A stretch of 64,000 nucleotides of DNA from an uncultured bacterium (GTDB taxonomy: Bacteria; Fidelibacterota; UBA2242), in assembly GCA_964441235.1 (NCBI GenBank), contig CAYTUQ010000002.1, positions 1,705 through 65,704 of the forward strand, written 5' to 3'. The translations under genes and the position numbers were made by a program. Below, piece by piece: positions 1,181 to 43,123 of this stretch. Each line of letters begins with the position of its first letter. The stretch's first letter is position 1. Below the pieces are notes generated by a model that did not search any database, had not been told where the DNA came from, and saw nothing but the letters and a program-made list of their open reading frames with translations.

Positions 1181-2090
1181 ATATGTTGGATTTTACCTGA
1201 TAATTGCTGTTTTTGGTATTGTCAGTATGATGCAGGCACAGGCTCTATTTCAGGGTCTGAATCACCCTCTTAATTCACGTGGCTGGGGAATGGGTTCAGC
1301 CGTCTGCGGTTTAGTAAATGATGGGACGGGCATTTCATCTAACCCGGGTACTCTTTCCAGGGCACCGCTCTCCTGGCAGGTTAACTATACTTCATTCGTT
1401 CTTGATATTTATTCAACAACTGGTTTTGTAATTCTAAATGCCCCAGTAAAAGGGAAATATGCAGTTATGATACATTACCTTGATTATGGCTCTTTTAGTG
1501 AACGAAATCGTGAGGGTGAGGCTACAGGAAATTTTTGTGTTAATGATTTAAATATGGGTATAGCTTACGGAACTGATATAACACAGAAACTGAGTGCTGG
1601 CGCTTCAGCCTCAGTTGTTCATTCAAATCTTAATCTATTGTCCGCAAATGCTGTTCTTGGGACAATTGGAATTCTTTACTATGATAGCAATTCAAGTCTT
1701 GCTATTGGCTTTGCCTACAATAACTTTGGTACTCTGTTATCCGGATATAAAACAGAAGATGAACCTCTTCCCAGAACTTTCATAATTGGAGTATCTAAAC
1801 ATCTTGCTCACCTTCCTATGATTTTATCTTTTGATGTGTACCAAGCGTATAAAGATGAGTACATTGCTCGGATAGGTGGAGAATTTCATTTTCATAATCG
1901 TTTCTTTCTCCGGTGGGGTACATCAACCCGAAGATTTCAGATAAATACACAGCAAACTTTTAAAGACTTTTTAGCTGGTTCTTCAGCGGGAGTAGGGATA
2001 AAGTTAAGCAGGTTCCATTTTGATTTAGCATTCATGAGTTTTGGGAATATTGGAACGATTTCATCAATTAGCATATCGCAAAGTCTTTAA
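1158..2090 (+). CDS. outer-membrane beta-barrel protein, FadL/PorV-like
   Basis: Signal peptide. N-terminal 'RGWGMGSA...NDGTGISSNPGTL' matches the 'ARALGMGGA...DDASA..NPAGL' signature of the FadL/PorV superfamily. Ends in an aromatic-rich beta-strand. Confidence 0.4.
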   Translation: MRTVSVRKYVGFYLIIAVFGIVSMMQAQALFQGLNHPLNSRGWGMGSAVCGLVNDGTGISSNPGTLSRAPLSWQVNYTSFVLDIYSTTGFVILNAPVKGKYAVMIHYLDYGSFSERNREGEATGNFCVNDLNMGIAYGTDITQKLSAGASASVVHSNLNLLSANAVLGTIGILYYDSNSSLAIGFAYNNFGTLLSGYKTEDEPLPRTFIIGVSKHLAHLPMILSFDVYQAYKDEYIARIGGEFHFHNRFFLRWGTSTRRFQINTQQTFKDFLAGSSAGVGIKLSRFHFDLAFMSFGNIGTISSISISQSL

Positions 2091-2103
2091 AGGAGTAATC
2101 CTT

Positions 2104-2490
2104 ATGAAGAAAATTACATTTATATTCGTGAGCCTTGGAATTTTAATTATTACCGTTGCTTCTGTTTTAAGTTGTGAACCTGATGAAAAATACGATGTAA
2201 GTTTTTCTTATGATATTCAACCGATTTTTAACATAAAGTGTCTGGATTGCCATGGTGCAGGTGGAAATGCAAATCTTGACCTGTCCTCTTATTCAACCTT
2301 GATGAGCGGAGGAAATAATAATCCTCCTGTACTAATTCCATTTCAATCAGACCAGAGCTTATTATATGAGAAAGTTTCGCAACAATCTCCGAGTATTGGT
2401 GATAGAATGCCTCTTGGTAGAAATCCTTTAATTAATTCGGATATTATACTTATCAGAGATTGGATAGACCAGGGCGCGAAAGGTAATTAG
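2104..2490 (+). CDS. c-type cytochrome domain lipoprotein (PSCyt1-like CxxCH)
   Basis: RBS AAGGAG upstream of ATG at 2104. Lipoprotein signal ending in ...LSC. 'PIFNIKCLDCHG...NLDLSSY...GG...P...DRMPLG' matches the planctomycete-type cytochrome c domain. The ORF-track start at 2041 overlaps the previous gene and is unlikely. Confidence 0.5.
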   Translation: MKKITFIFVSLGILIITVASVLSCEPDEKYDVSFSYDIQPIFNIKCLDCHGAGGNANLDLSSYSTLMSGGNNNPPVLIPFQSDQSLLYEKVSQQSPSIGDRMPLGRNPLINSDIILIRDWIDQGAKGN

Positions 2491-2642
2491 ATTTTCCTCT
2501 GTGAATTTGTATATAGGAATCAAACTATATTTTACCGATTGACCATGAAGGTTACATAAAGTTATTAGTGATTGTTTTGATAAAAGAATAAAAAAGGCAA
2601 TATAAAAACATCACCTTTTTAAAATCTATCATGGTTTTTGCG

Positions 2643-3302
2643 TTAGCTCCTTAGTTTGAAAATTACAGGAATTGAAATATAAACACCAACTTTCCTGTCT
2701 CTTTGCATAGCAGGGATGAAACGGGTCATTTTTATGGCTTTAACTGCAGCCTCGTCAAGCCCGGTATTCGGCACACCTTTAAGTATTACGCAGTCTTGCA
2801 CTTTCCCCTTTTTATCTACAAATGCTTGAACGATAACTGTTCCCTCTATTCCGGCTTCCTGAGCAATTTCCGGGTAAACAACATTTTTTTGAATAGCTTC
2901 AAAACCACCAATAGGTTTTGGTGGTTCATCATAAGGGATAAAACGAATAGTTGGACCTGTATTTTCTTCGGGAGGTGCAGGTGGAGCTTCCCATGCTACA
3001 TAATCATCAAAATCCATGTCTATATCCATGGAAATGTCCTCGGAAAAATCTTCATCCTCCGATTCAACCGGGATTGCAGGTCTTGACGGAGGCTTTGCCA
3101 TTTCAATTTTTTGTTCTGTTATTGGAATATCGGTGGTTTCAATGATTATTTGGACCTCTTTCTGTGTTCTACTTCTTTGTTCGAGCTTAGGGAATAGTAC
3201 CATTACAGCGATAATAAAAGCAAGACTAACCACGAGTCCTACTCTAAGGACTAAATTATATCTTAATTTTAGACTGGCTTCGGGATATTTTCTAAGAATC
3301 AT
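2643..3302 (-). CDS. tonB: TonB family energy transducer
   Basis: N-terminal TM helix, Pro/Glu-rich spacer and C-terminal TonB domain (GIEGTVIVQAFVDKKGKV...). Last gene of the exbB-exbD-exbD-tonB operon. Confidence 0.7.
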   Translation of the reverse strand: MILRKYPEASLKLRYNLVLRVGLVVSLAFIIAVMVLFPKLEQRSRTQKEVQIIIETTDIPITEQKIEMAKPPSRPAIPVESEDEDFSEDISMDIDMDFDDYVAWEAPPAPPEENTGPTIRFIPYDEPPKPIGGFEAIQKNVVYPEIAQEAGIEGTVIVQAFVDKKGKVQDCVILKGVPNTGLDEAAVKAIKMTRFIPAMQRDRKVGVYISIPVIFKLRS

Positions 3303-3314
3303 TTGATAAAACCT

Positions 3315-3722
3315 CTAAATGGCAGTCTTTGTAGAATAATTTACTTTCAGAGCATCTGCCAATCTTAATTCTTTGTGAATCTTGTTCATAAGTCCCATAT
3401 TTACTCGTTGATCTGATCTTATGGATACAATAAGGTGTGGATCAGCTGTCCGTTTTTCATACATAACATTCCTGATACTTTTAACATCTAAGAGTTTACC
3501 ATCAATTGAAATCAATTCTTCTTTTGATACCCATAAATAAGTTACGTGCACTTTTGAGGCGAGTTTCTCAATCTGCCTGGCTTTGGGCAGGACGACATTT
3601 AATCCCTCGTATTCACGCAGAACAGAAGACACCATAAAAAAGAAAATCAACATAAAAATAATATCAGGCATTGATGCAGTTGGAATTCCAGTTTTCATCT
3701 TGCTTTTTTTCTTCAATTTCAT
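3315..3722 (-). CDS. exbD: ExbD/TolR biopolymer transport protein
   Basis: Single N-terminal TM helix followed by an ExbD periplasmic domain. Operon context. Confidence 0.75.
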   Translation of the reverse strand: MKLKKKSKMKTGIPTASMPDIIFMLIFFFMVSSVLREYEGLNVVLPKARQIEKLASKVHVTYLWVSKEELISIDGKLLDVKSIRNVMYEKRTADPHLIVSIRSDQRVNMGLMNKIHKELRLADALKVNYSTKTAI

Positions 3723-3734
3723 CTTTTTTCTTTC

Positions 3735-4127
3735 CTATTCAGCAATTGAAACTTTTGCACTTGTCTGTTTTAACTGATCAAGAACCTCAATATATGTGTG
3801 GTATTTGGTTCTTGCATGTGTTTTTACTGAAAATATCATCTTCGGATTTTTCAGTATAATACCCTCAACTGTAGATTTAATTTTGCTGATTTCTATTTCT
3901 TTGTTATCCAGTAATACTCTTCCTGTAGGATCAATTATGAGGTTTGTGATATTTTTCTTAGATATCTCAACCTGGTCTCCTTCTGCAGGTAGAATCAGTT
4001 GTATTCCTTTATCCATGTCAATAGTTGTAGCGACCATAAAGAAAATAAGAATAAGAAAAGCAATATCAGCCAGTGAGCTTGATGGTATTTCCGCTTCACG
4101 GATTCCTTTATTTTTTAATAAACTCAT
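3735..4127 (-). CDS. exbD: ExbD/TolR biopolymer transport protein (second copy)
   Basis: ExbD-like architecture, adjacent to exbB. Confidence 0.75.
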   Translation of the reverse strand: MSLLKNKGIREAEIPSSSLADIAFLILIFFMVATTIDMDKGIQLILPAEGDQVEISKKNITNLIIDPTGRVLLDNKEIEISKIKSTVEGIILKNPKMIFSVKTHARTKYHTYIEVLDQLKQTSAKVSIAE

Positions 4128-29752: not shown

Positions 29753-30211
29753 TTATTTTTTCTTCTTTTTAGGTTTTTTCTTGGGTTTATCGGAAGATTC
29801 ATTTACTGAATTATCTTCATGGGATTCGTCCTCCCAATCATCAATAATTGCGATGTTATCCCCAAAAATATTCCATGCATCTTCTTCATTCTCATTTTGA
29901 AGACTTTTTTCGCGTTCTAATTCCTCTTCAAATTCGTCCCAGACTTCCTTACGCTTTTCAAACTTAGACGGATCTATTTCAGGCTCATCATAATCTTCCA
30001 GTTCTTCCTTTAACATTTCATCTCCATATAGACTCATATCAAAGAAATCTATATCATCTACTATATCATAGAAAACGAGTAACTCGAGGAAATTTAAATA
30101 TTTGGGATTTCGTAAATTTTTCTTACAGTGTGGACAAATTAAAGATTTTTTTAATTGTTCTTCCGATAATGGCTGACCACATTCTGGGCAAGCTAAATCT
30201 TCCATTGTCAC
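29753..30211 (-). CDS. zinc-ribbon protein with acidic middle and poly-Lys tail
   Basis: CPECG...CPHCKK ribbon, then a D/E-rich stretch and ...KKKPKKKKK. Confidence 0.35.
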   Translation of the reverse strand: MTMEDLACPECGQPLSEEQLKKSLICPHCKKNLRNPKYLNFLELLVFYDIVDDIDFFDMSLYGDEMLKEELEDYDEPEIDPSKFEKRKEVWDEFEEELEREKSLQNENEEDAWNIFGDNIAIIDDWEDESHEDNSVNESSDKPKKKPKKKKK

Positions 30212-30395
30212 TCCTCAATAATTGCGGCGGTAAATATAAACTGTTAAGCCCAGTTGGTCAAGAGAAATTTTAGATTTTTTTAATATTTTATTTTATGTAA
30301 AAATATTACTCTTAAAACGCATGAAACGCTTATTTTAATTACCTTTTATAATAAAATTCATACAGAACTTTTATATTGTGTATTACTGAAATTTT

Positions 30396-30929
30396 TCAAG
30401 TATTATTCTCAGTCGTCTGTTTATGTATAGATGTTATCAGGCTCTTTATTTGGATGTACCCGGATTCAATGGAATTATCTTCCTTCTTGTCAATTTGCAT
30501 ATTAAAACAGAAATCGGAATAATCTGATTTAAAGCCGATTCGTAATTGTACATTGCTATTATTAACGAAATATGCTGTCGTTAAATTGAAATCAATATTT
30601 AAATCAGCTGCTGCAATATAATTGTACTGAAAAATTTCTTTTACCAGACTATCTGAGGGTAGCAGAGACCTGCCAATATCAGAATTTAAAACAGGTATAA
30701 AACGGTTTGGGTCAATATTCTTGATAATCGGAAAAAATGCCTGGTGAATTATTGCCTTTATTTTAATACTATGCTCATCTATTAATGGGAAAAATACACG
30801 CTGTGCAATTTTAAATGGTATCGTATCAAATGGTAAACAAATGAGTATATATTCCTCATCTGAAGAATGCTGTGGACTGAGATTTCCGGTGCCCAATAAT
30901 TTTTTAACAGTTCGCTTTGATGTACTCAA
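30396..30929 (-). CDS. hypothetical protein
   Basis: ORF only. Marks the left edge of the defense island. Confidence 0.25.
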   Translation of the reverse strand: MSTSKRTVKKLLGTGNLSPQHSSDEEYILICLPFDTIPFKIAQRVFFPLIDEHSIKIKAIIHQAFFPIIKNIDPNRFIPVLNSDIGRSLLPSDSLVKEIFQYNYIAAADLNIDFNLTTAYFVNNSNVQLRIGFKSDYSDFCFNMQIDKKEDNSIESGYIQIKSLITSIHKQTTENNT

Positions 30930-31408
30930 TTATATCTCAATATTTTATCCTTATATCAAAATGCCTTTTTTTATATGGTACGCCTATAAGTCGAAGGGAA
31001 CGATTTTAAAAGACCTTTTTTCTTATCACTCACTAAACATTCCTTATTTTTTATTGGGTGGAAAATAAGTTATTCAGATGAAAAACAAAAGATATTTTAA
31101 ACCTGCACAGTAATTCACCAAGTTATAGGTTTTGCTCGTACCACGAAGCTCTGCTTCGCAAGCATATTTGCGAAGCAGTACGTAGGACGCGGTACATTTA
31201 TCCGTTTTAGTAAGAAGATCAGAAGACACGTCTGTGCCCGTAACTGACTCATTACCTTGCAAAACCAGGATAATGTTATCACTCATCAAACTTGTTATAT
31301 TATCTTAGATGATAAATAACAAAAGTTTTTATAGAAATTTAATTTATTGTCTTTTTACTTATTATCTGTAATTTTGTTTTCTGTGAAGATTTAAATAGGG
31401 AAATAACG

Positions 31409-31693
31409 ATGAGCATTAAAATAAAAAAGTTCGGCACTTTTGAGGGAGTTTTGACTCTACGCTCCTTGCTACTCTATTTTATTTACGGCAATAATTATAG
31501 AACTAAGCCTGCTGGTTATTCCGTAAATGATATTGGAAAAATAGATTTCTCCAAATTACGTAATGTTACAATTGGTAGGATTTTTTCTGAATTAAATATA
31601 ATTGAGCAGTGGGGACGGGAATTTACAAATATTATTGAATCTTGTAGGCAATATAAAAATATCGTTCCGGAATTCAAAGAAGAATTATTGTAG
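31409..31693 (+). pseudogene. remnant of HATPase_c_4-type (RecG-C-terminal-like) putative transcriptional regulator
   Basis: The C-terminal 'QWGREFTNIIESCRQYKNIVPEFKE' resembles the HATPase_c_4 tail 'G.GI.R..E.C...G.P.P.F'. At 94 aa it is far shorter than intact members. Confidence 0.3.
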
Positions 31694-32020
31694 TTTAAGA
31701 TTATTTTTTGGAATAAGAAAATAGATAAAAAAGTCGGAGATAAGCTCGGAGAAAAGGTGGTCAGAAAATCTTGCAAAAAGCTAAAAATATATTAGACTTA
31801 GTTAAAACAAATCCACATATTTCAAAAAGTGAACGCACTGCGTTCAGAATTGAGCTGGACGCATTATAGTCTATTGTTGAAGGTAGAAATTGATGTTGTT
31901 GACCATATTATTGCCACCAAAACTGAATATTTTAGTTTTAAAGATAGAAAATTATTGCAATGTTGCTGAAAGTTTAATATTTTCATTTACCTGTATAAAT
32001 TTATACAGGAATTATAAAAT

Positions 32021-32602
32021 ATGAAAAATATAAAGGCTATAGAAATCTTACAAAATTCAGGGAAGAAGATTTTCACCCTTTCTGAAATAAAGAATATTTT
32101 AGGCATTGAGAAAGATAATACAATCTACAAAAAAGTAGAATCTTTGATAAAAGATCGGATATTAAAAAGGGCAATTAAAGGAATCTATTATTTTACTTAT
32201 AATTCACCGTCAGATTTTGAATTAGCTAATCATCTTTATCAACCGTCTTATGTCTCTCTTACTTCGGCGTTAAATTTCCATGGAATTTTAGTCCAGGTGC
32301 CATATAAAATAACTTCTGTTACTCCTAAATTAACACGGGAAATTTATATTAACGAAAAGACCTTTAAATATTCTCATATCTCAAAAGATTATTTTTGGGG
32401 ATATCAAAAAGTAGAAGGATTTCTAATTGCAGAACCAGAAAAAGCATTTTTGGATGTTCTGTTCTTTATGAGCTTGGGGAGGATTATTATAAGTTACGAT
32501 GAACTTTTGTTAGATAGGATTGATTATGAAAAATTTTCAGAAATGACCAAAAAAATTAAAAACCCTAACTTTCACAGATTTTTAAAAAAATTAAAATTAT
32601 GA
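32021..32602 (+). CDS. AbiEi-type antitoxin/transcriptional regulator (type IV TA / abortive infection)
   Basis: N-terminal wHTH (KNILGIEKDNTIYKKVESLIKDRILKRAIKGIYYF). Its stop overlaps the start of the downstream AbiEii gene (ATGA). Confidence 0.55.
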   Translation: MKNIKAIEILQNSGKKIFTLSEIKNILGIEKDNTIYKKVESLIKDRILKRAIKGIYYFTYNSPSDFELANHLYQPSYVSLTSALNFHGILVQVPYKITSVTPKLTREIYINEKTFKYSHISKDYFWGYQKVEGFLIAEPEKAFLDVLFFMSLGRIIISYDELLLDRIDYEKFSEMTKKIKNPNFHRFLKKLKL

Positions 32603-33399
32603 TTACACCTGAACAGATTCAAGATTTATCAAAAAAAAAGAGGATAAATCAAGATACTATACTGCGAGAATATCTTCAACTTTTATTTTTGCAGAATCTT
32701 TATAGCGAAAAGTTGTCACAGAAAATTTATTTTAGAGGCGGAACAGCAATTCATTTGCTTTTAGGTTCTTCACGATTTTCAATGGATTTGGATTTTACTT
32801 CAGAAATTTCTACAACTTGTCTGGAAAAATTAATAAAAAAGATTGTTGATAGAATGAATTTGGAAATTCCAGATATCAGATTAAAATCATCAAGAAAAAG
32901 AATCAATCACTCATTTTCTAAGATTCTATCCTATTATCCAAAAGAGAAGAAATACCCTGTTAATATTGCAATTGATTTCTCTTTAAGAGAAAAACCTGTG
33001 AAAAAAACTCAAATAACAGTATTGAAAACTGATTTTCCAATAAGTGGTTTACCTGTAATTTCACATCTACATTGGCAGGAAATCTTAGCAGAAAAAATCA
33101 GGGCAATCTTGATTCGTGGAAAAGGAAGAGATTTATATGATATTTATTATTTGGTTATGAAAAATATCCGCCAGCTGGCAGATTGGGATGTGGTGAAAGA
33201 AAAAATGAAGATATATCCAGAAGTTGATATTGATACAAATATGAATACTCTTATTAGTAGAATTGAAAAATTGGGAAACAAAGAGCTTAAAAATGATTTA
33301 GCCCAGTTTTTACCTGATTCTGAAAGAAATTCTCTTTTGCCAATATTGAAAGACGAGTTAATTAAAGAACTTGAAAAATATAAACAAACACGAGGATGA
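32599..33399 (+). CDS. AbiEii/AbiGii nucleotidyltransferase toxin (DUF1814)
   Basis: YFRGGTAIHLLLGSSRFSMDLDF matches the GGTAL...R.S.DLDF nucleotidyltransferase signature. Confidence 0.7.
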   Translation: MITPEQIQDLSKKKRINQDTILREYLQLLFLQNLYSEKLSQKIYFRGGTAIHLLLGSSRFSMDLDFTSEISTTCLEKLIKKIVDRMNLEIPDIRLKSSRKRINHSFSKILSYYPKEKKYPVNIAIDFSLREKPVKKTQITVLKTDFPISGLPVISHLHWQEILAEKIRAILIRGKGRDLYDIYYLVMKNIRQLADWDVVKEKMKIYPEVDIDTNMNTLISRIEKLGNKELKNDLAQFLPDSERNSLLPILKDELIKELEKYKQTRG

Positions 33400-33490
33400 G
33401 TTTATAATTCGGTGAAAATTATGAACAAAAATAATTACCAAAATTGGACAAATGATGCTTATAATAATTAAATAGGACCATGAAATAGTT

Positions 33491-34216
33491 ATGGATGAAA
33501 AGAGTTGGATAAAAAATAGACCGGAGTATGAAAGACCTCGTGAAAAACTTTTGAAGTTTGGTTCTAAGAATCTTTCTAATTCGGAATTACTTGCTATCTT
33601 TCTTAGAATAGGTGTTAAAGACAAAAGTGCAATTCAACTTGCAGCAGAAATATTAGAAAAATTTGGTGGGATTAGAGGAATTTGTACTGCCAAAATAGAA
33701 GATTTACTTACAATAAAAGGATTGGGTATAGCAAAGATTGCTCAATTAAAAGCAACTTTAGAACTCGCTGAAAGGTATCTTAAAGAAGATGTTAAGCAAA
33801 AATCAATTGTAGAAAGCTCAAAGGAAGTTTTAAATTATCTTCATCATTCAATGCAAGATTTAGATCATGAATTAATGAAAGTAATCCTTTTGAATGGTCA
33901 AAATCAAATAATAAATATTGTAGATTTATTTAGAGGCTCTATAAGTTCATCAAGTGTTTATCCAAGGGAGATAATCAAATTGGCTCTTAAATATTCAGCT
34001 TTAGCAATTGTTATTGTTCATAATCATCCTTCTGGAATTTCAAAACCAAGCGAAGGTGATAAAAAACTTACAAAAGAAATTATTTTTGCATGTATTTCTA
34101 CAGGTATTAAAGTTCACGACCATATAATAATTGGCAATAAAAAGCATTATAGTTTTGCTGATGAGGGAATTATTGAAGTTTACGAAAAAGAATATGAAAA
34201 GAGGATGAAACTATGA
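33491..34216 (+). CDS. radC: RadC-like JAB/MPN domain protein
   Basis: N-terminal HhH (LLTIKGLGIAKIAQLKATLELAERY) and a JAMM motif (HNHPSG...S..D). Confidence 0.8.
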   Translation: MDEKSWIKNRPEYERPREKLLKFGSKNLSNSELLAIFLRIGVKDKSAIQLAAEILEKFGGIRGICTAKIEDLLTIKGLGIAKIAQLKATLELAERYLKEDVKQKSIVESSKEVLNYLHHSMQDLDHELMKVILLNGQNQIINIVDLFRGSISSSSVYPREIIKLALKYSALAIVIVHNHPSGISKPSEGDKKLTKEIIFACISTGIKVHDHIIIGNKKHYSFADEGIIEVYEKEYEKRMKL

Positions 34217-36096
34217 GTCCAGTAAAATATCAAAGAGTGGATGAAATAGAAAAAAGGGGATATTTAAGAGATTATGCAACGGGAAAATGGGTTAGGTCAA
34301 GGCCCGAAGAAGGACCAAGACAAATATTTGAAAAAAGGTTAGTTGGAGAATATGGCTACGACAAAGGTCAAATTGAAATTGAGTTCTTAATACAAAAAGG
34401 AGCTAGAAAAATCGGTCCTGCTGATATAGTTGTTTTTCACGATTCAAAAAGAAAAACATTTGATAACATAAAAATAGTGGTTGAAACAAAGAGAAAAGAA
34501 AAAAATGATGGAAAAGATCAATTAAGATCTTATTCAATATCACCATCCCAAGAATTTGCAGTTTGGTTTAACGGAAAAGACATTCTATTTCTACAGGTTC
34601 TGAAAAAAGCACCATGGTTTAGAGAAATCCCAGATATTCCTAAAAAAGGTGAGACATTAGAAGATGTAGGGCTTTATTATAAGAAGGATTTAAAACCTGC
34701 AACAGAACTGAAAACTGTTTTTGAGATTTGTCACAATTATATTTATGCAAATGAGGGACTCTTGAAAGAGAAGGTATTTAATGAGGTGCTAAAACTAATT
34801 TTTATCAAAATGGCTGATGAAAAGAAATCAAATCCCAAATGTGAGTTTAGAATTACTGACAAAGAATTAAAAGAATTAGAAGAGGGCAAAGAAAATGCAT
34901 TTGTGAATAGGATTTTGAATCTTTTTAGTGAAGTAAAAACAAGATATAGTGATGTTTTTGAGAAAAATGAAAGAATATATCTAAGACCTTTAACAATTGC
35001 CTTTATTGTCAGTCAATTCCAAAAATATAGTTTGATTAACACTAAAGCAGATGTTAAAGGAACAGCATTTCAAACATTTGTTTATGCTCATCAAAGAGGA
35101 GAGAGAGGGGAGTTCTTTACACCACATCCAATTGTTGAATTAGCAGTAAATATGCTAAATCCAAAAGACAATGAAAGATTTATTGACCCTGCTTGTGGTT
35201 CTGGCGGTTTCCTTGTTAAAGGAATGAATTATATTAAAGAAAAATTTATTAAAGATAATCCTCATAGGATAACTGAAGCAGATAAATTTATAGGTGAATA
35301 TGCACATTCTTATGTTTCTGGAATTGATATTAATCCTGATTTGGCAAAAGTTGCAAAGATGCACATGATTTTGTATGATGATGGACACACGGGAATTTTT
35401 TCAGCGAATACTTTAGAGAGTTTTGATAATTTGGTAAAAACTGCACAAGAAATGGGAGTTCCAAGAGCAATACAACCAAGACCAAATACTTTTCAAGTTT
35501 TGATGACCAATCCACCTTTTGGGACAAAGGGAAAAGTAACGAATAAAAGAATCTTGGAAAACTTTGAACTTGGCCATAAATGGAAAAACGATAAAGAAAT
35601 AGGAGGATGGATAAAAACAAATAAAATCTTGGATGGGCAAGTTCCAGATATTTTATTCATTGAGAGATGTTTGCGGTTATTGGACAATCATGGTAGAATG
35701 GCAATTGTTTTGCCTGACGGTGATTTAACAAATCAAAATACAGAGCATATAAGAGAATTTATTAAACAAAAAGCAAGATTACTGGCAGTAGTTTCTATGC
35801 CTATTGGAACATTTATGCATGCTGGAGTTAATCCAAAAGCAAGTGTATTGTTTTTACAAAAATTGGATGAAGAAAAATTAGAAGAGTTGAATAGAAAAGA
35901 TTATCCCATCTTCATGGCCATTGCTGAGAGGATAGGCTATGATTTAACAAGTAAAACACCTAAAATACTTTACAAAAGAGATGAGAAGGGAGAGATAATT
36001 AAATATAAAGAAGGAAAACCAATTATTGAATCTGATATTCCAGAAATAATAGAAGCGTTTAACGGATTCAAAAGGAAATATAACTTGAGGTTTTAA
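34213..36096 (+). CDS. hsdM: Type I-like N6-adenine DNA methyltransferase (HsdM) with N-terminal HsdR_N-like domain
   Basis: Motif I DPACGSGGFL and motif IV NPPFG. The N-terminal ~130 aa (ARKIGPADIVVFHD...IKIVVETKRKEK...QLRSYS...FAVWFNGKDI) match the HsdR_N PD-(D/E)xK-like fold. Confidence 0.75.
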   Translation: MSPVKYQRVDEIEKRGYLRDYATGKWVRSRPEEGPRQIFEKRLVGEYGYDKGQIEIEFLIQKGARKIGPADIVVFHDSKRKTFDNIKIVVETKRKEKNDGKDQLRSYSISPSQEFAVWFNGKDILFLQVLKKAPWFREIPDIPKKGETLEDVGLYYKKDLKPATELKTVFEICHNYIYANEGLLKEKVFNEVLKLIFIKMADEKKSNPKCEFRITDKELKELEEGKENAFVNRILNLFSEVKTRYSDVFEKNERIYLRPLTIAFIVSQFQKYSLINTKADVKGTAFQTFVYAHQRGERGEFFTPHPIVELAVNMLNPKDNERFIDPACGSGGFLVKGMNYIKEKFIKDNPHRITEADKFIGEYAHSYVSGIDINPDLAKVAKMHMILYDDGHTGIFSANTLESFDNLVKTAQEMGVPRAIQPRPNTFQVLMTNPPFGTKGKVTNKRILENFELGHKWKNDKEIGGWIKTNKILDGQVPDILFIERCLRLLDNHGRMAIVLPDGDLTNQNTEHIREFIKQKARLLAVVSMPIGTFMHAGVNPKASVLFLQKLDEEKLEELNRKDYPIFMAIAERIGYDLTSKTPKILYKRDEKGEIIKYKEGKPIIESDIPEIIEAFNGFKRKYNLRF

Positions 36097-37034
36097 TGAT
36101 GGAAAAAGAAAAAATGACTTTTGAGGATTTTTGGAATCATGAAACAGAATATTTTAAAGAAACGGCAAAAGAAAGTTTTAAAAAAAATAAACAGGGAGTT
36201 GAATATTTTATAGAATATCTCGATAATTATATAGATCTATTTGGCATAAACAAGTATTACCAAAAAGATGAAATAACAAATTCTATTTCTGCTATGTTTC
36301 TCTTTTACTCCTTTAAACAATTGCGATGGGTTAATCATGAGATTCTATCAGGTGCTTATTTTGAGGCAATCAGAGATTTAAGATTTGCATTTGAAACTAT
36401 TGTTTGGGCACATTTTTTAGATGAGTGGATTAACGAAAAAACAAAAGAATACCTAAAAGTAAGTATAGGAGCAGGAATATCTTTAAAATATGAGATTTTA
36501 AAGTTAAGAGATGAGATATATGATGTCAAAGGTTATAGAAAAAAGAAAAATGAAAGAGAGAAAATAGTTAAGGAAAATGTTGGCAAATTCATAAAAAAGC
36601 ATGCCCAAGATTTTACAAACGAAGAAACGTGGAAATATAAAGAACTTTATTTTGAAATCTTGAAGAACTTGGGAGTTGGATTTACTGGAAAAAATGGATT
36701 AATTGCTAAACTTCCCTTAGAAGAGGAAGATGAAAAGAAGTTGGACAAACTTTATTCAGAATTATCAAAATATATCCATCCATCAAACAGAATAATAAAA
36801 CCGTTTTATGAAGACGATATTGGTTTAATCTTTAATTTTTGCTATAATAAAATATTATTTAATAGCTGTATGAGGTTTCTTGTAGATGTTATGGACTTAT
36901 TTTATGCCATTCTTTACGTCCATTTTGAGAAACTTAGAGAAGTGATTAAAGAAAAAATTGTAGATTTTTGTAAGGTTAATTTTAATATGGAATTTCCGAT
37001 AACTGAAAAATTAATACGGGATGACCTAGTATGA
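36096..37034 (+). CDS. hypothetical protein embedded between hsdM and hsdS
   Basis: 312 aa with no recognisable motif. Start overlaps the hsdM stop and stop overlaps the hsdS start, so it is operonic. Confidence 0.3.
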   Translation: MMEKEKMTFEDFWNHETEYFKETAKESFKKNKQGVEYFIEYLDNYIDLFGINKYYQKDEITNSISAMFLFYSFKQLRWVNHEILSGAYFEAIRDLRFAFETIVWAHFLDEWINEKTKEYLKVSIGAGISLKYEILKLRDEIYDVKGYRKKKNEREKIVKENVGKFIKKHAQDFTNEETWKYKELYFEILKNLGVGFTGKNGLIAKLPLEEEDEKKLDKLYSELSKYIHPSNRIIKPFYEDDIGLIFNFCYNKILFNSCMRFLVDVMDLFYAILYVHFEKLREVIKEKIVDFCKVNFNMEFPITEKLIRDDLV

Positions 37035-39439
37035 TAATTTCAGAAGCAAAATTTTCAGAAGCTTATACCAAACTAAGATTTGATGCTGAATATTTTAAAA
37101 CAGAATTCATTGAAACACGATATAGATTAGAAAAAATTAATGCATCCAAACTTACTTCTATTGCTGAAATATCAAAATTAAGGAGGGATCCTACAAAAGA
37201 ATCGGATAAAGAATTTATATACATTGATATAAGCAATATTGATACATCTGTTGCTGATGTCAGTACACAGAAAATAATAGGTTATAAAGCACCAACAAGA
37301 GCGAGAAAATTAGTTCAAACAGGAGATGTTATAGTATCTACTGTACGACCGAATAGAAATGCCGTCGCAATTATACCAAAAGAATTAGATAATAGCGTTT
37401 GTTCTACAGGCTTTTGTGTTTTAAAACCGACGGAAGTAAATTTGCATTATTTGTTTGTTTTCTTAAAAACAAAATATGCAATAAATCAACTAGTAAGAGA
37501 AACTATGGCTTCTATGTATCCCGCAGTTAGTGAAGATCAAATTAAAAAGATATTGGTGTTTTTACCATCTTTTGAATTCCAGTTTCACGTAGAAAAACTC
37601 GTCAAAGAAGCATTTTCAAAACGAAAACTTGCTGATGAAAAATACAAACAAGCAAAACAACTTTTAGAAAAAGAATTAGGACTTGATAAATTAAAATTAA
37701 AAGAAGAAAAAACATTTGAAGCAAAATCATCAGAACTATTTGGAAGTAGAAGATTTGATTCTGAGTACTACAAGCCGAAGTGCAAACAAATCATAAGGTT
37801 TCTTAAAAATTCTGGGTTTGAAGTAAAGAAATTAAAAGAGATTGTAAAAATTTCAAATAAGAAAATTGACCCAACAAAGGAGCCAACCAAAAGGTTTAGA
37901 TATGTTCCAATAGCAAAGATAAATTCAAATGGAGAAATTGATGAGTGGGATGAATTTAATGGTTGGCAGGCACCAAGCAGGGCAAGAATGCTTATTAAAA
38001 AAGGGGATGTTTTAGTCTCATCATTAGGTGGTTCGCTTAACAAAATAGCATTAGTTCCTGAAGAATTAAATAATTCAATTGCTACAACAGGAACCTTTGT
38101 CATCAATTCTGAAAACTTTTATAGTGAATTCTTATTTTTATTATTCAGAACAGAACTAATCAAATTGCAGTTGGAGCGGAAAACAGCAGGTGCAATAATG
38201 ACTGCTGTTCCTAAAACAACTTTTGGAAATTTACTAATTCCAATTATTCCAAAACAAAAGCAAGAAAATATTGCAAAATTAATAAACCAATCTTTTACTT
38301 TGAGAAAAGAAGCAAAACAACTTTTAGAAGAGGCAAAAGAAAAGGTGGAAAGTATGATAGAAAATCCTTTAGAAATCTCTGAAACCCAACCCGTTCTCCG
38401 TAGTCCTGATAAAATTGGGACGAAGGGTGAACCTGAGATTATTATCCCTTTTCCTATTCCTTCAAAATTAATAAGCCTTAAACCGCCTGTCAAAGTAAAA
38501 TATAAAGATTACCAAATGCTTGATGGTTCAATAAAGAAATTGGTTCAACAAATAGGAGATGGTTCAATCATTAAAAGATTTGAAAAAACACCAATACCTA
38601 AAAGTAAAATAGATGTAGTTTGTCCTCATTTTCTTGAATTAAAATGGGCAACAGGATGTCCTTATGATTGTTCCTGGTGCTATCTGAAAGGAACTTTTAG
38701 ATTCTTGCCGTATAAAGCGAAACCACATATTAAGGATTTTGATAAGATAGAAAAACATACAAAGACATTTTTGGAATATGTTCAAACTCCTGAAGTATTA
38801 AATACAGGTGAGCTGGCAGACTCACTAATGCTTGAAGTAAAGAATAAATCATTTGTTAAGTTTATTGTTCCACTTTTTGAAAACCAAAATAAGCATAAGA
38901 TTCTCTTTTTGAGTAAATCAAACAAAATAGAAAATCTTTTATTACTTAATACACATCGTCAGGTTATAGTAAGTTTTAGTCTTAATGCTATTCCTGTGGC
39001 ACAAAGATGGGAAAAGAAAGCACCTTCAGTTGAAGACCGCATAAAAGCAGCAGGGATTCTATACAAACAACGATTTGAAGTAAGGATAAGGATAGACCCA
39101 ATGATCCCTGTGGAAAACTGGGAGCAACTTTATACTGATTTAATAGACCGCATATTTAATTCGTTTATACCTGAAAGAATTACTTTAGGTTCTCTTAGAG
39201 GATTACAGAGTACTATCAATGGAACATCAGATAAGTCCTGGGTAAAATATCTATCTGAACGCTCAAACTGGGGAAGAAAAATAGATATTAATTTAAGGCT
39301 TGCTATGTACAAAACAATTATCTCTTATTTAAATGAAAAGTATAAATATAATAAGGTCGCTCTTTGCAAAGAAACTTTGGCAATTTGGGATATACTAAAT
39401 ACGAATTATAAAAATATAAAATGTAATTGTGTGTGGTAG
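37031..39439 (+). CDS. hsdS: Type I specificity subunit (two TRDs) fused to a C-terminal SPL/COG1533-like radical SAM domain
   Basis: Residues 1-~450 carry two HsdS target-recognition domains (RFDAEYF...STGFCVLKP..., RFDSEYYKP...TTGTFVI...) with conserved coiled-coil spacers. Residues ~500-802 carry CPYDCSWCY (CxxxCxxC) followed by spore-photoproduct-lyase-family landmarks (LFLSKS, SFSLNA, IRIDPMIP). It is a single continuous ORF. Confidence 0.6.
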   Translation: MIISEAKFSEAYTKLRFDAEYFKTEFIETRYRLEKINASKLTSIAEISKLRRDPTKESDKEFIYIDISNIDTSVADVSTQKIIGYKAPTRARKLVQTGDVIVSTVRPNRNAVAIIPKELDNSVCSTGFCVLKPTEVNLHYLFVFLKTKYAINQLVRETMASMYPAVSEDQIKKILVFLPSFEFQFHVEKLVKEAFSKRKLADEKYKQAKQLLEKELGLDKLKLKEEKTFEAKSSELFGSRRFDSEYYKPKCKQIIRFLKNSGFEVKKLKEIVKISNKKIDPTKEPTKRFRYVPIAKINSNGEIDEWDEFNGWQAPSRARMLIKKGDVLVSSLGGSLNKIALVPEELNNSIATTGTFVINSENFYSEFLFLLFRTELIKLQLERKTAGAIMTAVPKTTFGNLLIPIIPKQKQENIAKLINQSFTLRKEAKQLLEEAKEKVESMIENPLEISETQPVLRSPDKIGTKGEPEIIIPFPIPSKLISLKPPVKVKYKDYQMLDGSIKKLVQQIGDGSIIKRFEKTPIPKSKIDVVCPHFLELKWATGCPYDCSWCYLKGTFRFLPYKAKPHIKDFDKIEKHTKTFLEYVQTPEVLNTGELADSLMLEVKNKSFVKFIVPLFENQNKHKILFLSKSNKIENLLLLNTHRQVIVSFSLNAIPVAQRWEKKAPSVEDRIKAAGILYKQRFEVRIRIDPMIPVENWEQLYTDLIDRIFNSFIPERITLGSLRGLQSTINGTSDKSWVKYLSERSNWGRKIDINLRLAMYKTIISYLNEKYKYNKVALCKETLAIWDILNTNYKNIKCNCVW

Positions 39440-39451
39440 AAAGGAAAGATT

Positions 39452-40549
39452 ATGTCTATTAAAGAAACAATATGGAAGATTGAACTGCACACACAGGCAA
39501 AGCATGAAATACTAAAGCGGTATCTTCAAGCGTGGCTTCCAATAATGAGTACTGTTAGTGGGCGTATTTTGTATATTGATGGCTTTGCAGGTCCAGGAAA
39601 GTATTTAGACGAAAATAATCAGCCAACTATTGATGGCTCTCCACTTGTGGCTATGAATGCAGCAATAAAGCACAAGTTACCGCTAAAGGCGGAGATAGTA
39701 TTTCTTTTAATTGAAGCAGACCCTAAAAGATTTGACTATCTTAAAAATTTGCTTTCAGAAATAACTTTTGCAGATAGTATGAAATATAAAGTAGTATGTA
39801 GTAAATTTGATGAAACTCTTACATCTATTCTAAACGACTTTGATGAGCAGAAGAAACAATTAGCTCCAACTTTTGCATTCATTGACCCATTTGGATATTC
39901 CGATACACCTCTTGCAGTTGTTAAACGAATAATGGAGAGCCCAAAGTGTGAGGTCCTTATTACATTTATGTATAGTTTTATAAAAAGAGCTATTGTCAAA
40001 CTCGACCAAGAAGATCATCTAGACATTCTTTTTGGTACCCAAGAATGGAGAAAAATTCGAGATATTGGTTATCCTTCAAAGAAACGAGAATTTGCCCAGC
40101 AACTTTATAAAAAACAATTGGAAAAGGAAGCCAATATAAAATATGTGCGTTTTTTTGAGATGATTAATAAGTTCAATCAAACTGAATATTTTTTATTTTT
40201 CGGAACTAATAGTCTTGAAGGACTTAGATATATGAATTCGTCAATGTGGAAAGTTGATCCGAGTGGAACATTTCAATTTTCTGATAGAACAAATCCTAAT
40301 CAAACAGTGCTCTTTACTCTAGAGCCTAACTATAACTTACTTAAAAGATTAATTGTCAGAGAATATAAAGGTAAAACGGTCTCAGTTGAAGAAGTTGATG
40401 AATTTGTATTAGTGGCTGGTTTCACTCATTTCAAAAAGAATATTTTGGAACCTATGGAAAGAGCAAAACCTGCTCAGATAGAAGTGATTAAGAGTAATAG
40501 GAAGAGAAGATATACTTATCCACCAAGAACTATAATTAAATTTTTGTAA
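39452..40549 (+). CDS. hypothetical protein with methyltransferase-like DxFxGxG motif, possible radical-SAM partner ('TcmP-like')
   Basis: LYIDGFAGPGKY resembles SAM-MTase motif I and FAFIDPFGY resembles a degenerate motif IV. Immediately downstream of the rSAM fusion, with a 12-nt gap. Assignment to the three-Cys-motif-partner family is from memory only. Confidence 0.3.
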   Translation: MSIKETIWKIELHTQAKHEILKRYLQAWLPIMSTVSGRILYIDGFAGPGKYLDENNQPTIDGSPLVAMNAAIKHKLPLKAEIVFLLIEADPKRFDYLKNLLSEITFADSMKYKVVCSKFDETLTSILNDFDEQKKQLAPTFAFIDPFGYSDTPLAVVKRIMESPKCEVLITFMYSFIKRAIVKLDQEDHLDILFGTQEWRKIRDIGYPSKKREFAQQLYKKQLEKEANIKYVRFFEMINKFNQTEYFLFFGTNSLEGLRYMNSSMWKVDPSGTFQFSDRTNPNQTVLFTLEPNYNLLKRLIVREYKGKTVSVEEVDEFVLVAGFTHFKKNILEPMERAKPAQIEVIKSNRKRRYTYPPRTIIKFL

Positions 40550-40643
40550 AAGAATTTAAAACATATTTTGATACAAAAATTAAATTTAATATCAGGTCAG
40601 TTTTAAAGTGAAATGCTAAATAAAAATTAAGGTGAGGAATAGG

Positions 40644-40922
40644 ATGAAGAAAAATCAGAAAACTGGCTACCAATATGAAAAATCTCAAGCAAAAAAACAC
40701 CGAGGTAAACATCTTGGTGGCCCAGGAAAACCGGATTATCAAAGAGGTAAAATTAAGGGTGAAGTAAAAGACTGGAAACATCCCGTACATAGCGGAGTAA
40801 TTAAAAAAGCCATAAAAAATGGTGTAAAAGAAGTTGTAAGTAAAAGTGGTTTCACAAAACCAGCTATACAATTGGCTAAAAAGAAAAATATAAAATTTAT
40901 AAGACGAGGAAAAAAAGTTTAG
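40644..40922 (+). CDS. small basic protein with PD-(D/E)xK-like motif (Mrr-cat-like restriction endonuclease fold?)
   Basis: GGPGKPDYQRGKIKGEVKDWKH fits D-x(9)-E-x-K. Very Lys/Arg-rich. RBS GGTGAGG precedes ATG 40644. Confidence 0.25.
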   Translation: MKKNQKTGYQYEKSQAKKHRGKHLGGPGKPDYQRGKIKGEVKDWKHPVHSGVIKKAIKNGVKEVVSKSGFTKPAIQLAKKKNIKFIRRGKKV

Positions 40923-41164
40923 AAAAAAATATAATTCTCCTATTCAGTCATTATAAATAAGATAAAAAATTTCTTATTTATAATGCAAATTTATTAGAAG
41001 CAATTGTTACTAAAAATCTTATTATTATGAAAAAAACATAGACATTTAGAGATTTGCCGATATAAGAGCAATAAATAGCATAAATGCAAAAGAAAAGCAA
41101 AATAGCTTTTTGAAGAAGCAAAAAGAAAAATTGAGAAGATGATTTTAAGATCATCTACAAGAAA

Positions 41165-41524
41165 ATGACTTTATTTATAGAGAACAAAATGAATAGAGAT
41201 AAAAATATCAGAAAAATAATTTCAAGAATGGTAGAGAAAATCAAAACTGAATATCAACCAGAAAGGATAGTTCTCTTTGGTTCTTATTCTTGGGGAAAGC
41301 CAACAAGGGATAGTGATGTAGATTTACTTATTATTAAAAAGACAAATGAAAGACATTTAGAGAGAGCAATTAGGGTTAGAGAAATTGTTGATAAAGAAAA
41401 CCGAATGGTTCCACTAGATATTGTGGTATATACTCCACAAGAGCTCAAACAGAGATTGAAAGCAAGAGATTGTTTTATAAAAACAATATTAACAAAAGGA
41501 GATGTAGTTTATGAACAAGAATGA
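41165..41524 (+). CDS. nucleotidyltransferase (MntA-like antitoxin, Pol-beta superfamily)
   Basis: LFGSYSWGKPTRDSDVDLLII is the GS...D.D motif. Overlaps the downstream HEPN gene by 14 nt. Confidence 0.7.
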   Translation: MTLFIENKMNRDKNIRKIISRMVEKIKTEYQPERIVLFGSYSWGKPTRDSDVDLLIIKKTNERHLERAIRVREIVDKENRMVPLDIVVYTPQELKQRLKARDCFIKTILTKGDVVYEQE

Positions 41525-41894
41525 AGCATTTAGATGGTTCAAACGAGCTCAAAAAGATATTGAAGATGCAGAATTCCTCTTGAAAGAAAGCCGAACTTTA
41601 GAAAATGTAGCACTCCTTATTCAACAAGCAATTGAAAAATATCTCAAAGGATTCATAATATATCATGATTGGGAATTGGAGAAAATCCATGATTTGATAA
41701 CGCTTATTAACTATGCGAGTAAAATTGACAAATCCTTTGAGAAGTTTGTTCCTTCTCTCAGAATTATCACTAATTTCTATTTTGAAAGCCGCTATCCTAT
41801 TACCTATGAACCAGATTATACAAAAGAAGAAATAAGAGAATCTCTTAAAGAAGCAAAGAAACTTATTGCTCTAATTAAAGAAAAAGTAAAATAA
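41511..41894 (+). CDS. HEPN domain protein (HepT-like toxin)
   Basis: HEPN helical fold with ...ESRYP...Y... signature. Paired with the MNT gene. Confidence 0.6.
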   Translation: MNKNEAFRWFKRAQKDIEDAEFLLKESRTLENVALLIQQAIEKYLKGFIIYHDWELEKIHDLITLINYASKIDKSFEKFVPSLRIITNFYFESRYPITYEPDYTKEEIRESLKEAKKLIALIKEKVK

Positions 41895-42013
41895 TGCTTT
41901 GATTACTTGTTCAATCCCCTGAAGCAACAAGAAGCAAAGCAACTCTTAGAAGAAGCAAAAAGAAAAGTTGAGAAGATAATGGATAGAGAAAGTGATAAAA
42001 ACAGGTAGGAAAA

Positions 42014-43051
42014 ATGTTTAAACCCAAATTTACATACACAAATAAAATTGTAAGGTTGCTTACCAGAATATCTGCAGCGAGAGAGATAATTCTTAATTCG
42101 CCTTTGATCCCGGGGTGGAATGTTACATTAAGGCAGGAAGCAATAATCCACAGTGCTCATTCGTCCACGCGTATTGAGGGAAATAGATTATCATTGGAAC
42201 AAGTAAGCGAATTATCTCTTGGAAGAGAAGTAATGGCGACTCGAAGAGATAAACAGGAAGTTTTGAACTATCTGAATGTGCTAAAAAATATTGATAAGCT
42301 GATAAAAGGAAATTCTATAAGTGAGAAAGATATCTTAAATATTCACCGTATGGTAACAGAAGACACATTAGACAATTCTAATGATTGTGGGGTTTATCGT
42401 AACCGTTATGTTGTGGTTGGAAATAGATTTACAGGGGAGATTTTCTTTAAGCCACCGCAAAATGAGGATGTTCCCGGGTTAATAGAAGATTTGATTGAAT
42501 GGATAAACTCTGAGGAATCAAAATCACTCGAGCCTGTTATTGAAGCGGGTATTGAGCATTATGAATTTGTCAGAATTCATCCTTTTGTTGATGGTAATGG
42601 GAGAACTGCAAGAGTTCTGGCAACTTTGATTCTCTACATGCGAGATTTCGACACAAAACAATTTTTTTGCCTTGATGATTATTACGATTCTGATAGACAA
42701 GCATACTATTTAGCATTACAAAGTGTTAAACAAGACACATTAGACCTGACAAACTGGTTGGAATATTTTGTCGAGGGAGTAAGTGTAAGCACTGAGGCTG
42801 TCAAAGAAAGAGTGATAAGGTTAAGTAGTGAGAGACTGAGAAGATCAAAAGGCGGGCAAATAGCTTTAACCGAAAGACAGATAAGAATTGTGGAATTTAT
42901 TAATAAAAATGGTAAAATAACTAATAGAGATGTACGGGGAATGTTTAAACTTTCGGATGAAGGTGCATTGAGAGAGATTAAAAAACTAATGGTGTTGAAA
43001 GTTATTCAAAGCCAGGGTAAAGGGAGAGGGTTGCATTATGTCCTTAAATAA
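42014..43051 (+). CDS. fic: Fic/DOC family protein with Fic_N and C-terminal wHTH
   Basis: HPFVDGNGRTARV is the Fic motif HPFx[DE]GNGR. N-terminal ...HSSTRIEGN... is a Fic_N motif. Confidence 0.8.
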   Translation: MFKPKFTYTNKIVRLLTRISAAREIILNSPLIPGWNVTLRQEAIIHSAHSSTRIEGNRLSLEQVSELSLGREVMATRRDKQEVLNYLNVLKNIDKLIKGNSISEKDILNIHRMVTEDTLDNSNDCGVYRNRYVVVGNRFTGEIFFKPPQNEDVPGLIEDLIEWINSEESKSLEPVIEAGIEHYEFVRIHPFVDGNGRTARVLATLILYMRDFDTKQFFCLDDYYDSDRQAYYLALQSVKQDTLDLTNWLEYFVEGVSVSTEAVKERVIRLSSERLRRSKGGQIALTERQIRIVEFINKNGKITNRDVRGMFKLSDEGALREIKKLMVLKVIQSQGKGRGLHYVLK

Positions 43052-43123
43052 GGTTGGCGATTAGGTTGGCGATTAGGTTGGCGATTAGGTTGATGATTAG
43101 GTTGATGATTAGGTTGATGATTT
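43052..43123. repeat. 12-bp tandem repeat (GGTTGGCGATTA x3, GGTTGATGATTA x3)
   Basis: Six perfect or near-perfect head-to-tail units, starting one base after the fic stop codon. Confidence 0.85.

Follow-up and report, generated by a model that had tools for sequence, protein, structure and literature searches.

An exchanged gene of an unnamed, possibly HEPN-like family at the methylase-specificity junction of a type IIB-like restriction-modification operon

What is a gene of 312 codons doing between two subunit genes of a restriction-modification (R-M) operon? The operon is located in a stretch of 64,000 nucleotides, hereafter the window, which was taken from the genome of an uncultured bacterium (Fidelibacterota, UBA2242; assembly GCA_964441235.1, contig CAYTUQ010000002.1, positions 1,705 to 65,704). 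The gene, here called X, lies between the gene for a nuclease-methylase subunit (M) and the gene for a specificity protein (S). An earlier reading, made by a model from the letters and the open reading frames (the sequence-only reading), had described X as an open reading frame with no recognisable motif, coupled to both neighbours and probably a functional accessory of an hsdM-hsdS module, and had named prrC and Abi genes as known residents of such junctions. The analysis described here shows that X belongs to a conserved family of proteins and was exchanged between divergent operons as a unit. As to its role, we lean tentatively toward an exchanged cassette for a HEPN-like, abortive-infection-type effector that is co-expressed with a type IIB-like R-M enzyme.

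X is a real gene under purifying selection. In DNA of 30% GC, a 312-codon open frame is expected by chance with a probability of ~6e-12 per start position and ~8e-7 over the whole window. A protein identical to X was called on 20 contigs from several metagenomes, and its arrangement was always the same. The ratio of nonsynonymous to synonymous substitution rates (dN/dS), calculated for X against homologues of 65-77% identity, was 0.15-0.27.

Translational coupling of X was confirmed on both sides. Upstream, the sequence TAATG at 36094-36098 contains the ATG of X and the TAA stop of the 627-aa M gene, with one base in common, and a Shine-Dalgarno-like GAGG is located at 36087-36090, 5-6 nt 5' of this ATG. 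Downstream, the stop of X and the start of S share an ATGA. A second in-frame ATG at 36099 may be the start actually used for X, because the homologue in the related locus L007 begins with MDKEK at the aligned position. Scanning for promoters and terminators gave sites no more frequent than the chance expectation. Neither an Rfam family nor a repeat array, which would suggest a type III RNA antitoxin, was found near X.

Close copies of X were found at exactly the M-S junction of two further operons, L007 (gene order RadC, M, X, a plain 446-aa S, MNT) and L098. The M proteins of these operons are 63-67% identical to that of the window and their X proteins are 76% identical, whereas M relatives at 77-88% identity are not accompanied by X. 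In a sliding-window comparison of the window with L007, nucleotide identity was 57-73% over RadC and M, 81-93% over X (~36.05-37.03 kb), and 34-57% over S. Because this jump in identity is confined to X while M and S diverged, X was passed between divergent operons as a single cassette that runs from its start to its stop codon; in two operon lineages it has come to lie at the same position. These identity values, together with the jump at both ends of X, rule out that X and M diverged in step.

The contents of the M-S slot were surveyed in 80 related metagenomic loci; the methylase family as a whole gave more than 5,400 matches. In 71 of them the arrangement was resolvable, the other 9 being cut by a contig end or otherwise unresolved. 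S follows M directly, with a gap of -4 to +176 nt, in 50 loci; M and S are fused in 7 loci; and one or two genes separate M from S in 14 loci. The largest group of these inserts encodes YhcG/DUF1016 PDDEXK nucleases (8 loci). AbiJ-like HEPN proteins (AbiJ_NTD4 + DUF7014/Abi_C) were found in 2 loci, as was a 300-aa protein containing LHDLRNxxQHH, with an Rx4H motif, and having weak DUF3644/HEPN matches. The last two inserts are a 395-aa protein with RNKKYPVH and a 163-aa unknown protein. The closest methylase, 88% identical, belongs to locus L097, where a 622-aa OLD-family ATPase with an OLD-like Toprim domain is located in the slot (1984-3852); in L013, with a methylase 77% identical, the slot is empty. 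Thus, the M-S slot of this operon family is a hotspot, and the view of this junction as a site of insertion, put forward in the sequence-only reading, was borne out. X was found in none of the 80 surveyed loci; it does recur in L007 and L098, so it is not absent from all other M-S operons. An empty slot was also observed in L099 (478-13312), an M-S operon with a methylase 80% identical to that of the window, located in an island with a Piwi-domain (prokaryotic Argonaute) protein, SACS/NOV_C, and DUF5655.

Searches with X alone gave no usable match in Pfam, NCBIfam, PADLOC, PHROGs, or the sequences of the PDB; in PADLOC nothing was found at E<0.1. A PWI match (E 0.06) and PHROG matches (E 0.011 and 0.04) were rejected as noise. 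A match to a housekeeping family, which would have spoken against the sequence-only reading, was found for X in neither Pfam nor NCBIfam. Word-index searches with X or its profile returned merely 6-8 proteins (six with X). An exhaustive HMMER search with the alignment of those six detected 185 cluster representatives at E<=1e-3, including 73 at E<=1e-10. Conservation was assessed in an alignment (A3) of 114 family members with ~25% identity to X.

Most relatives of X are ~240 aa long and match it in two blocks. The insert at residues ~140-195 of X is missing from ~85% of the aligned relatives, and the segment 121-209, which contains this insert, has an isoelectric point (pI) of 9.6. The most conserved columns among the 114 sequences are R96 (100%), L223 (99%), H228 (98%), Y88 (96%), E100 (94%), and R93 (90%), followed by G86 (88%), T27 (86%), and D267 (85%). 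X retains all of these residues except T27, which is replaced by Ser. Two family motifs were derived, G-x-Y-x2-A-x-R-x-L-R-x3-E on a long helix and L-Y-x2-L-[S/C/N]-x-[Y/F]-x-H-x-S closer to the C-terminus. Thus, the description of X as lacking a recognisable motif stands for X in the libraries and falls at the level of the family, where R-x2-R-x3-E and L-[S/C/N]-x-[Y/F]-x-H-x-S emerge.

Relationships to named families were sought through the relatives. In a Pfam scan of the 114 proteins, 19 weakly match DUF5677, five match DUF6988, and two match DUF4145. Protein P0009, ~33% identical to X, reaches 25.7 bits against DUF5677 (gathering cutoff 27.1) over profile positions 16-162 of 166, and P0070 reaches 21.8 bits, its H-motif region aligning to profile positions 117-163. 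All relatives remain below the 27.1-bit gathering threshold, and X itself does not match DUF5677 (PF18928). The same 114 proteins gave only single, scattered matches in NCBIfam, which is the chance level for the set. Because the relatives match DUF5677 weakly but repeatedly while the NCBIfam control is scattered, X belongs to a family that has no name and stands as a distant offshoot of DUF5677. The PADLOC candidate PDC-S52 was matched by 3 of the 114 relatives (best E 4.9e-5). Downstream in L099, a 426-aa protein matches DUF5677 at 26.8 bits; it does not match the X profile and was rejected as a relative of X.

A structural model of X was obtained with AlphaFold. The run with six sequences had a predicted local distance difference test score (pLDDT) of 62 and was discarded. 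With the alignment of 114 sequences, pLDDT rose to 94.7 and the predicted template modelling score (pTM) was 0.90; structure prediction, one of the checks proposed with the sequence-only reading, therefore yielded a confident all-helical model, which has 14 helices. Foldseek searches of this model against the PDB and BFVD gave no significant match. HEPN proteins are present within the top 41 entries, among them 1ufb, 4nqf, 5yep, 7ae2, 1wwp, 8xdj, 1ylm, AbiA, and Csm6. The family profile found nothing among PDB sequences.

The core of a HEPN domain is a four-helix up-and-down bundle of ~100-120 residues. Such domains contain a variable insert between helices 2 and 3, an acidic/basic pair upstream of it, and a His-bearing motif downstream, the motif being Rx4-6H with a polar residue after the Arg (PMC3710099). 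The topology of X appears to agree with this description, its variable insert separating the R..R...E helix from the helix at whose end the H motif stands. In the H motif, the polar residue after the Arg place is present and the His is conserved. A candidate for the upstream acidic residue is E100, which lies on the same helix as R96 and R93 in the order R-x3-E, not E-x3-K/R. Variants of HEPN with the His but without the Arg have been documented (Parep1/8, c2405), with other basic residues conserved elsewhere in these proteins (PMC3710099). The core of X most resembles a HEPN domain, and membership in the HEPN superfamily is probable, if by no means certain.

Relatives of X outside M-S operons were found in several contexts. 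In L008, a copy 65% identical to X stands alone between small unrelated open reading frames, with a 176-nt gap upstream. In a branch 42% identical to X (L010, 3953-5692; P0007, P0275, L009), an uncharacterised middle domain of ~170 aa and C-terminal HEAT repeats are either part of the same protein or encoded next to it. In L010, a Spirochaete metagenome-assembled genome, the X relative follows a GmrSD_N-HNH protein and an Mrr-like endonuclease. In L094 (355-9290), the protein P0012, 27-29% identical to X, is encoded just upstream of an SNF2/NOV_C helicase, a DUF1156 methylase, and DUF499; HEPN domains have already been linked to this R-M-like multi-gene system of SNF2, DUF1156, and DUF499 proteins (PMC3710099). 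In P0085, the X-family domain is fused to an Mrr_N/DUF7669-like winged helix, in the place where a nuclease domain would normally be, and in one protein the N-terminal region has an RSDIVHG motif, as judged from the motif alone. Searches of viral contigs, phage records, and plasmids gave no relatives, and a genome collection gave one X-family locus. Thus, the X family is a defence-island family that leans to methylation-based systems and is not an obligate partner of M and S.

The reading of X to which we lean can be stated as a mechanism. X would be made from one transcript with the R-M enzyme and would serve as a second-line effector of the abortive-infection type. Its target would probably be RNA, and the conserved R93/R96/E100 cluster and H228 would be the residues involved. 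Two systems suggest how it might be controlled. The anticodon nuclease PrrC stays latent with EcoprrI until a T4 inhibitor activates it (PMC1484252). RonA kills when produced alone; HsdMS suppresses it, and Ocr, ArdA, or Aop1 act as its triggers (bioRxiv 10.1101/2023.04.06.535777). By analogy, X might be silent while the R-M complex is intact and act once a phage disables it, a course that is favoured here without proof. Control by the R-M complex is the most attractive version of the proposal because of these PrrC and RonA precedents. HEPN homology, RNase activity, toxicity, and any such control of X are inferred.

A number of results weigh against this reading. X is dispensable for the module, as shown by the empty slot in 50 of the 71 resolvable operons, and locus L061 has the same fusion of S with a radical-SAM domain, together with TcmP, without X. 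The L008 copy has no M-S genes beside it. The canonical Rx4-6H motif was not found in the X family, where the place of the Arg is taken by Leu in 99% of sequences, and hhalign comparisons of the family profile with the window's own HEPN protein and with two slot occupants bearing HEPN motifs gave no signal. Fusions of X-family domains with HEAT repeats, transmembrane segments, and a GT4 glycosyltransferase are as compatible with a role in binding or sensing as with an enzymatic one. X matches no PADLOC defence model. Finally, a DUF5677 gene of Enterococcus faecalis was not among the open reading frames protecting against six phages (PMC12632615), which is weak negative evidence concerning the wider superfamily. 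The claim of the sequence-only reading that X is probably a functional accessory of its module also loses ground here. It is not implied by the coupling, since X is absent from 50 M-S operons and from L061, and it is weakened further by the relatives outside M-S operons (L008, L010, L094) and by the exchange of X between operons; it remains conjectural.

The main rival explanation, which we consider somewhat unlikely, is that X is an autonomous defence or toxin cassette independent of the R-M proteins. The junction would then merely supply transcription, translation, and a recombination-friendly landing site with conserved gene ends. The exchange of X between operons with such different M proteins, with identity boundaries at the gene ends, favours this explanation, as do the closest M relatives, which have another gene (the OLD ATPase of L097) or an empty slot (L013). 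Relatives of X without any M-S genes (L008 alone; L010 and L094 by unrelated systems) point the same way, and the YhcG, AbiJ-like, and OLD families of the slot are likewise found elsewhere. However, the window, L007, and L098, which are all the close copies with enough flanking sequence, have X at exactly the same junction with the same overlap geometry in two divergent lineages. Such repetition suggests a preference for the junction over random landing and speaks for coupling to the R-M module. The precedents at M-S junctions, PrrC and RonA, moreover do depend on the R-M complex.

An extended version of the proposal seems unlikely to us. In it, the type IIB-like enzyme would have a guard mechanism of its own, with X as the toxin that is set free. 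X would be a non-canonical HEPN-like RNase whose active site combines R96/E100 and H228 from two helices; the RM-S complex would keep it inactive until a phage DNA mimic disabled that complex. The M-S junction would be the site where X, AbiJ-like, YhcG, and OLD genes are exchanged by recombination at conserved gene ends.

It seems similarly improbable that X is a non-catalytic helical adaptor or regulator. Its degenerate HEPN-like domain would then tune the assembly, specificity, or activity of the R-M enzyme (e.g., restrain it on an unmethylated genome), or would bind nucleic acid without cutting. The missing catalytic Arg of canonical HEPN domains is consistent with this role; domains of the superfamily without the motif, such as MtlR, have been proposed as binding or regulatory domains (PMC3710099). 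Fusions to HEAT repeats, transmembrane regions, and a glycosyltransferase are typical of interaction modules, and the basic insert, with its pI of 9.6, also argues for the adaptor role. Against it, near-invariant R93, R96, E100, H228, and D267 at ~25% pairwise identity point to an active site more than to a scaffold, most related operons do without such a protein, and the other slot occupants are nucleases or toxins.

That X is a passenger without a defence role, present by chance in a low-GC island, is the least credible explanation: X matches no defence model, the phage and plasmid collections yielded no relatives, and DUF5677 has no known function and one tested member that gave no protection (PMC12632615), but defence genes flank X or its relatives in every informative neighbourhood, related operons fill the slot with defence-type genes, three relatives match PADLOC PDC-S52, and no housekeeping family matches.

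The coordinates of X, its signals and motifs, and the neighbouring genes are given in Table 1.

Table 1. Features of gene X, its operon, and the surrounding island (positions in the window)
Feature	Position	Strand	Basis or content
Gene X (312 aa)	36096..37034	+	Open reading frame list; 37.8 kDa, soluble, all-helical
5' coupling signals of X	36087..36098	+	GAGG then TAATG; read directly, junction compared with L007 and L098
R-x2-R-x3-E signature, codons R93-E100 (R-D-L-R-F-A-F-E)	36372..36395	+	On long helix 88-120
K/E-rich basic helical insert	36513..36680	+	Codons ~140-195; column occupancy 0.15-0.26, two-block matches
L223-S230 (L-S-K-Y-I-H-P-S)	36762..36785	+	Spacing of HEPN R-[N]-x3-H, Leu at the place of Arg
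Stop/start overlap of X and S gene	37031..37034	+	ATGA: TGA stop of X overlaps ATG of 802-aa gene
RadC-like JAB protein, first gene of the operon	33491..34216	+	Pfam RadC, UPF0758_N; stop overlaps start of M gene by 4 nt
Nuclease-methylase (M) subunit, 627 aa	34213..36096	+	N-terminal HSDR_N_2 PD-(D/E)xK and gamma-class N6-adenine methyltransferase (NPPF 433-436)
S protein, 802 aa	37031..39439	+	Two target-recognition domains (~1-450) and C-terminal 280-residue radical-SAM domain (CPYDCSWC) similar to spore photoproduct lyase (SPL)
TcmP (three-Cys-motif partner protein)	39452..40549	+	12 nt after S; TIGR04474 218.9 bits (cutoff 53); PADLOC defence candidate PDC-M30A 3e-60
HATPase_c_4 fragment, 94 aa	31409-31693		Island member
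AbiEi-like (DUF6088-like)/AbiEii pair	32021-33399		Island member
MNT/HEPN pair	41165-41894		Island member
Fic protein	42014-43051		Island member

The genes for RadC, M, X, S with its radical-SAM domain, and TcmP form one tightly packed operon, because stops and starts overlap from RadC to S and TcmP follows after a short gap. The sequence-only reading had labelled the flanks of X hsdM and hsdS, and these labels had to be revised, the genes not being classical ones. In M, a PD-(D/E)xK nuclease domain and a methylase form one chain that resembles a type IIB RM subunit, and S ends in the SPL-like radical-SAM domain. No HsdR, helicase, or ResIII protein was detected among the scanned large open reading frames of the window or the genes of the island. 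A classical type I R-M system was therefore rejected, given the nuclease domain fused to the methylase.

In the M protein, D71, E91, K93, and NPPF are invariant in 17 homologues (alignment A4). Its best match among PDB sequences is RM.BsaXI, a type IIB enzyme (9e-25), the match being confined to the methylase region 165-561. The homologues, which share 60-88% identity across the more than 5,400 matches, span bacteria, archaea (Thermoplasmatota), and bacteria of the candidate phyla radiation (CPR; Paceibacterota). This level of identity is unusually high for an R-M enzyme and implies a very active horizontal spread. Some relatives have the methylase and a half-S domain in a single chain. RadC precedes the methylase in ~30 of the 80 related loci, so that it seems to be a third conserved component in this family of R-M systems.

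The S protein was annotated by matches to Pfam Methylase_S, SPL, and Radical_SAM, to the S subunits 5ybb/3okg in the PDB, and to the SPL structure 4rh0. An S-radical-SAM fusion may be more unusual than gene X itself. A radical-SAM domain tethered to a DNA-recognition subunit hints at sequence-directed DNA chemistry other than methylation. TcmP and radical-SAM proteins recur 3' of S, as separate genes in L027, L028, and L038 and as one TcmP-radical-SAM fusion in L014. The methylation-associated defence system (MADS), with its multi-gene mad1-8 set, was also considered and rejected. The M protein has 476 bits with NCBIfam MAD2 (cutoff 720) and the S protein 134 bits with MAD5 (cutoff 400), X and TcmP match no MAD model, and the neighbours are RadC, TcmP, AbiE, MNT/HEPN, and Fic.

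The operon lies in a low-GC defence island at ~30000-43100 (~29-30% vs 36%), with housekeeping genes on both flanks. At the right edge of the island, a tandem array of the 12-nt unit AGGTTGGCGATT starts from the end of the Fic gene (43051-43116, 5.5 copies, 96% matches); this array could be a boundary mark of the island or a regulatory element. Just after TcmP, a 96-aa, very lysine-rich open reading frame (40632-40922) has no family match above noise and was called as a 92-aa gene in every copy of the locus (L001-L005).

When phages neutralise restriction, effectors embedded in R-M loci (PrrC, RonA, and many HEPN families, for example) come into action as a second line of immunity. To these the locus adds an unannotated family of ~185 cluster representatives, with a confident structural model and a short list of candidate catalytic residues. 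The slot belongs to a very widespread nuclease-methylase family and changes its content between close relatives, so it is a practical place to seek effectors. Whether an R-M complex controls such cargo, or whether the two are merely co-expressed, can also be tested on this slot. If X were indeed a guard toxin, this would be the first function for the DUF5677-like superfamily and would extend PrrC/Ronin-type guarding beyond type I systems.

Among the known systems, PrrC with the type Ic enzyme EcoprrI is similar to the locus in that an effector gene is located inside an R-M operon by hsdM/hsdS, and the nuclease domain of PrrC is of the HEPN type (PMC1484252, PMC3710099). X lacks both the N-terminal ABC-type NTPase domain and the canonical Rx4H of PrrC, and the host of PrrC is a type I system with HsdR, whereas that of X is a two-subunit, type IIB-like enzyme. 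A PrrC/RloC-like anticodon nuclease was rejected for X, which has no ATPase family or P-loop match in Pfam or NCBIfam. Of the genes cited in the sequence-only reading, prrC is therefore not a model for the domain make-up of X, which lacks the ABC ATPase domain. The Ronin decoy-immunity system (RonA with HsdMS) likewise has an effector gene tightly linked to hsdM/hsdS. Whereas RonA is a 61-aa membrane peptide, X is soluble, helical, and 312 aa long; and whereas Ronin works without a nuclease, the enzyme next to X has an intact PD-(D/E)xK motif.

The HEPN families embedded in R-M loci (AbiJ, Abi2/AbiD/F, AbiU2, ApeA, DUF4145, and EC042_2821/DUF3644) are small to mid-sized helical predicted RNase effectors (PMC3710099), and AbiJ-like and DUF3644/HEPN-like genes share the slot with X in related operons. 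X matches none of the models of these families and lacks the motif Arg, resembling in this respect the H-without-R variants Parep1/8 and c2405. AbiV was rejected, with no PADLOC AbiV match in X or its relatives. DUF5677 (with DUF6988) is the sole library family repeatedly matched by the relatives of X, over nearly the whole profile including the H-motif region; X differs from it by extra N-terminal helices and the insert of ~55 residues. The YhcG/DUF1016 genes occupy the same slot in the same operon family with the same tight spacing (8 of the 14 inserts), but their PD-(D/E)xK fold and sequence are unrelated to X. The host module shares with the type IIB systems (BsaXI, BcgI-like) a nuclease-methyltransferase subunit and a separate S subunit, and differs from them in the fusion of S to a radical-SAM domain and in the presence of RadC and TcmP in the operon. 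Thus, HEPN and Abi-type genes within R-M operons are an established theme, and what is new is the X family, its model, and its candidate catalytic residues.

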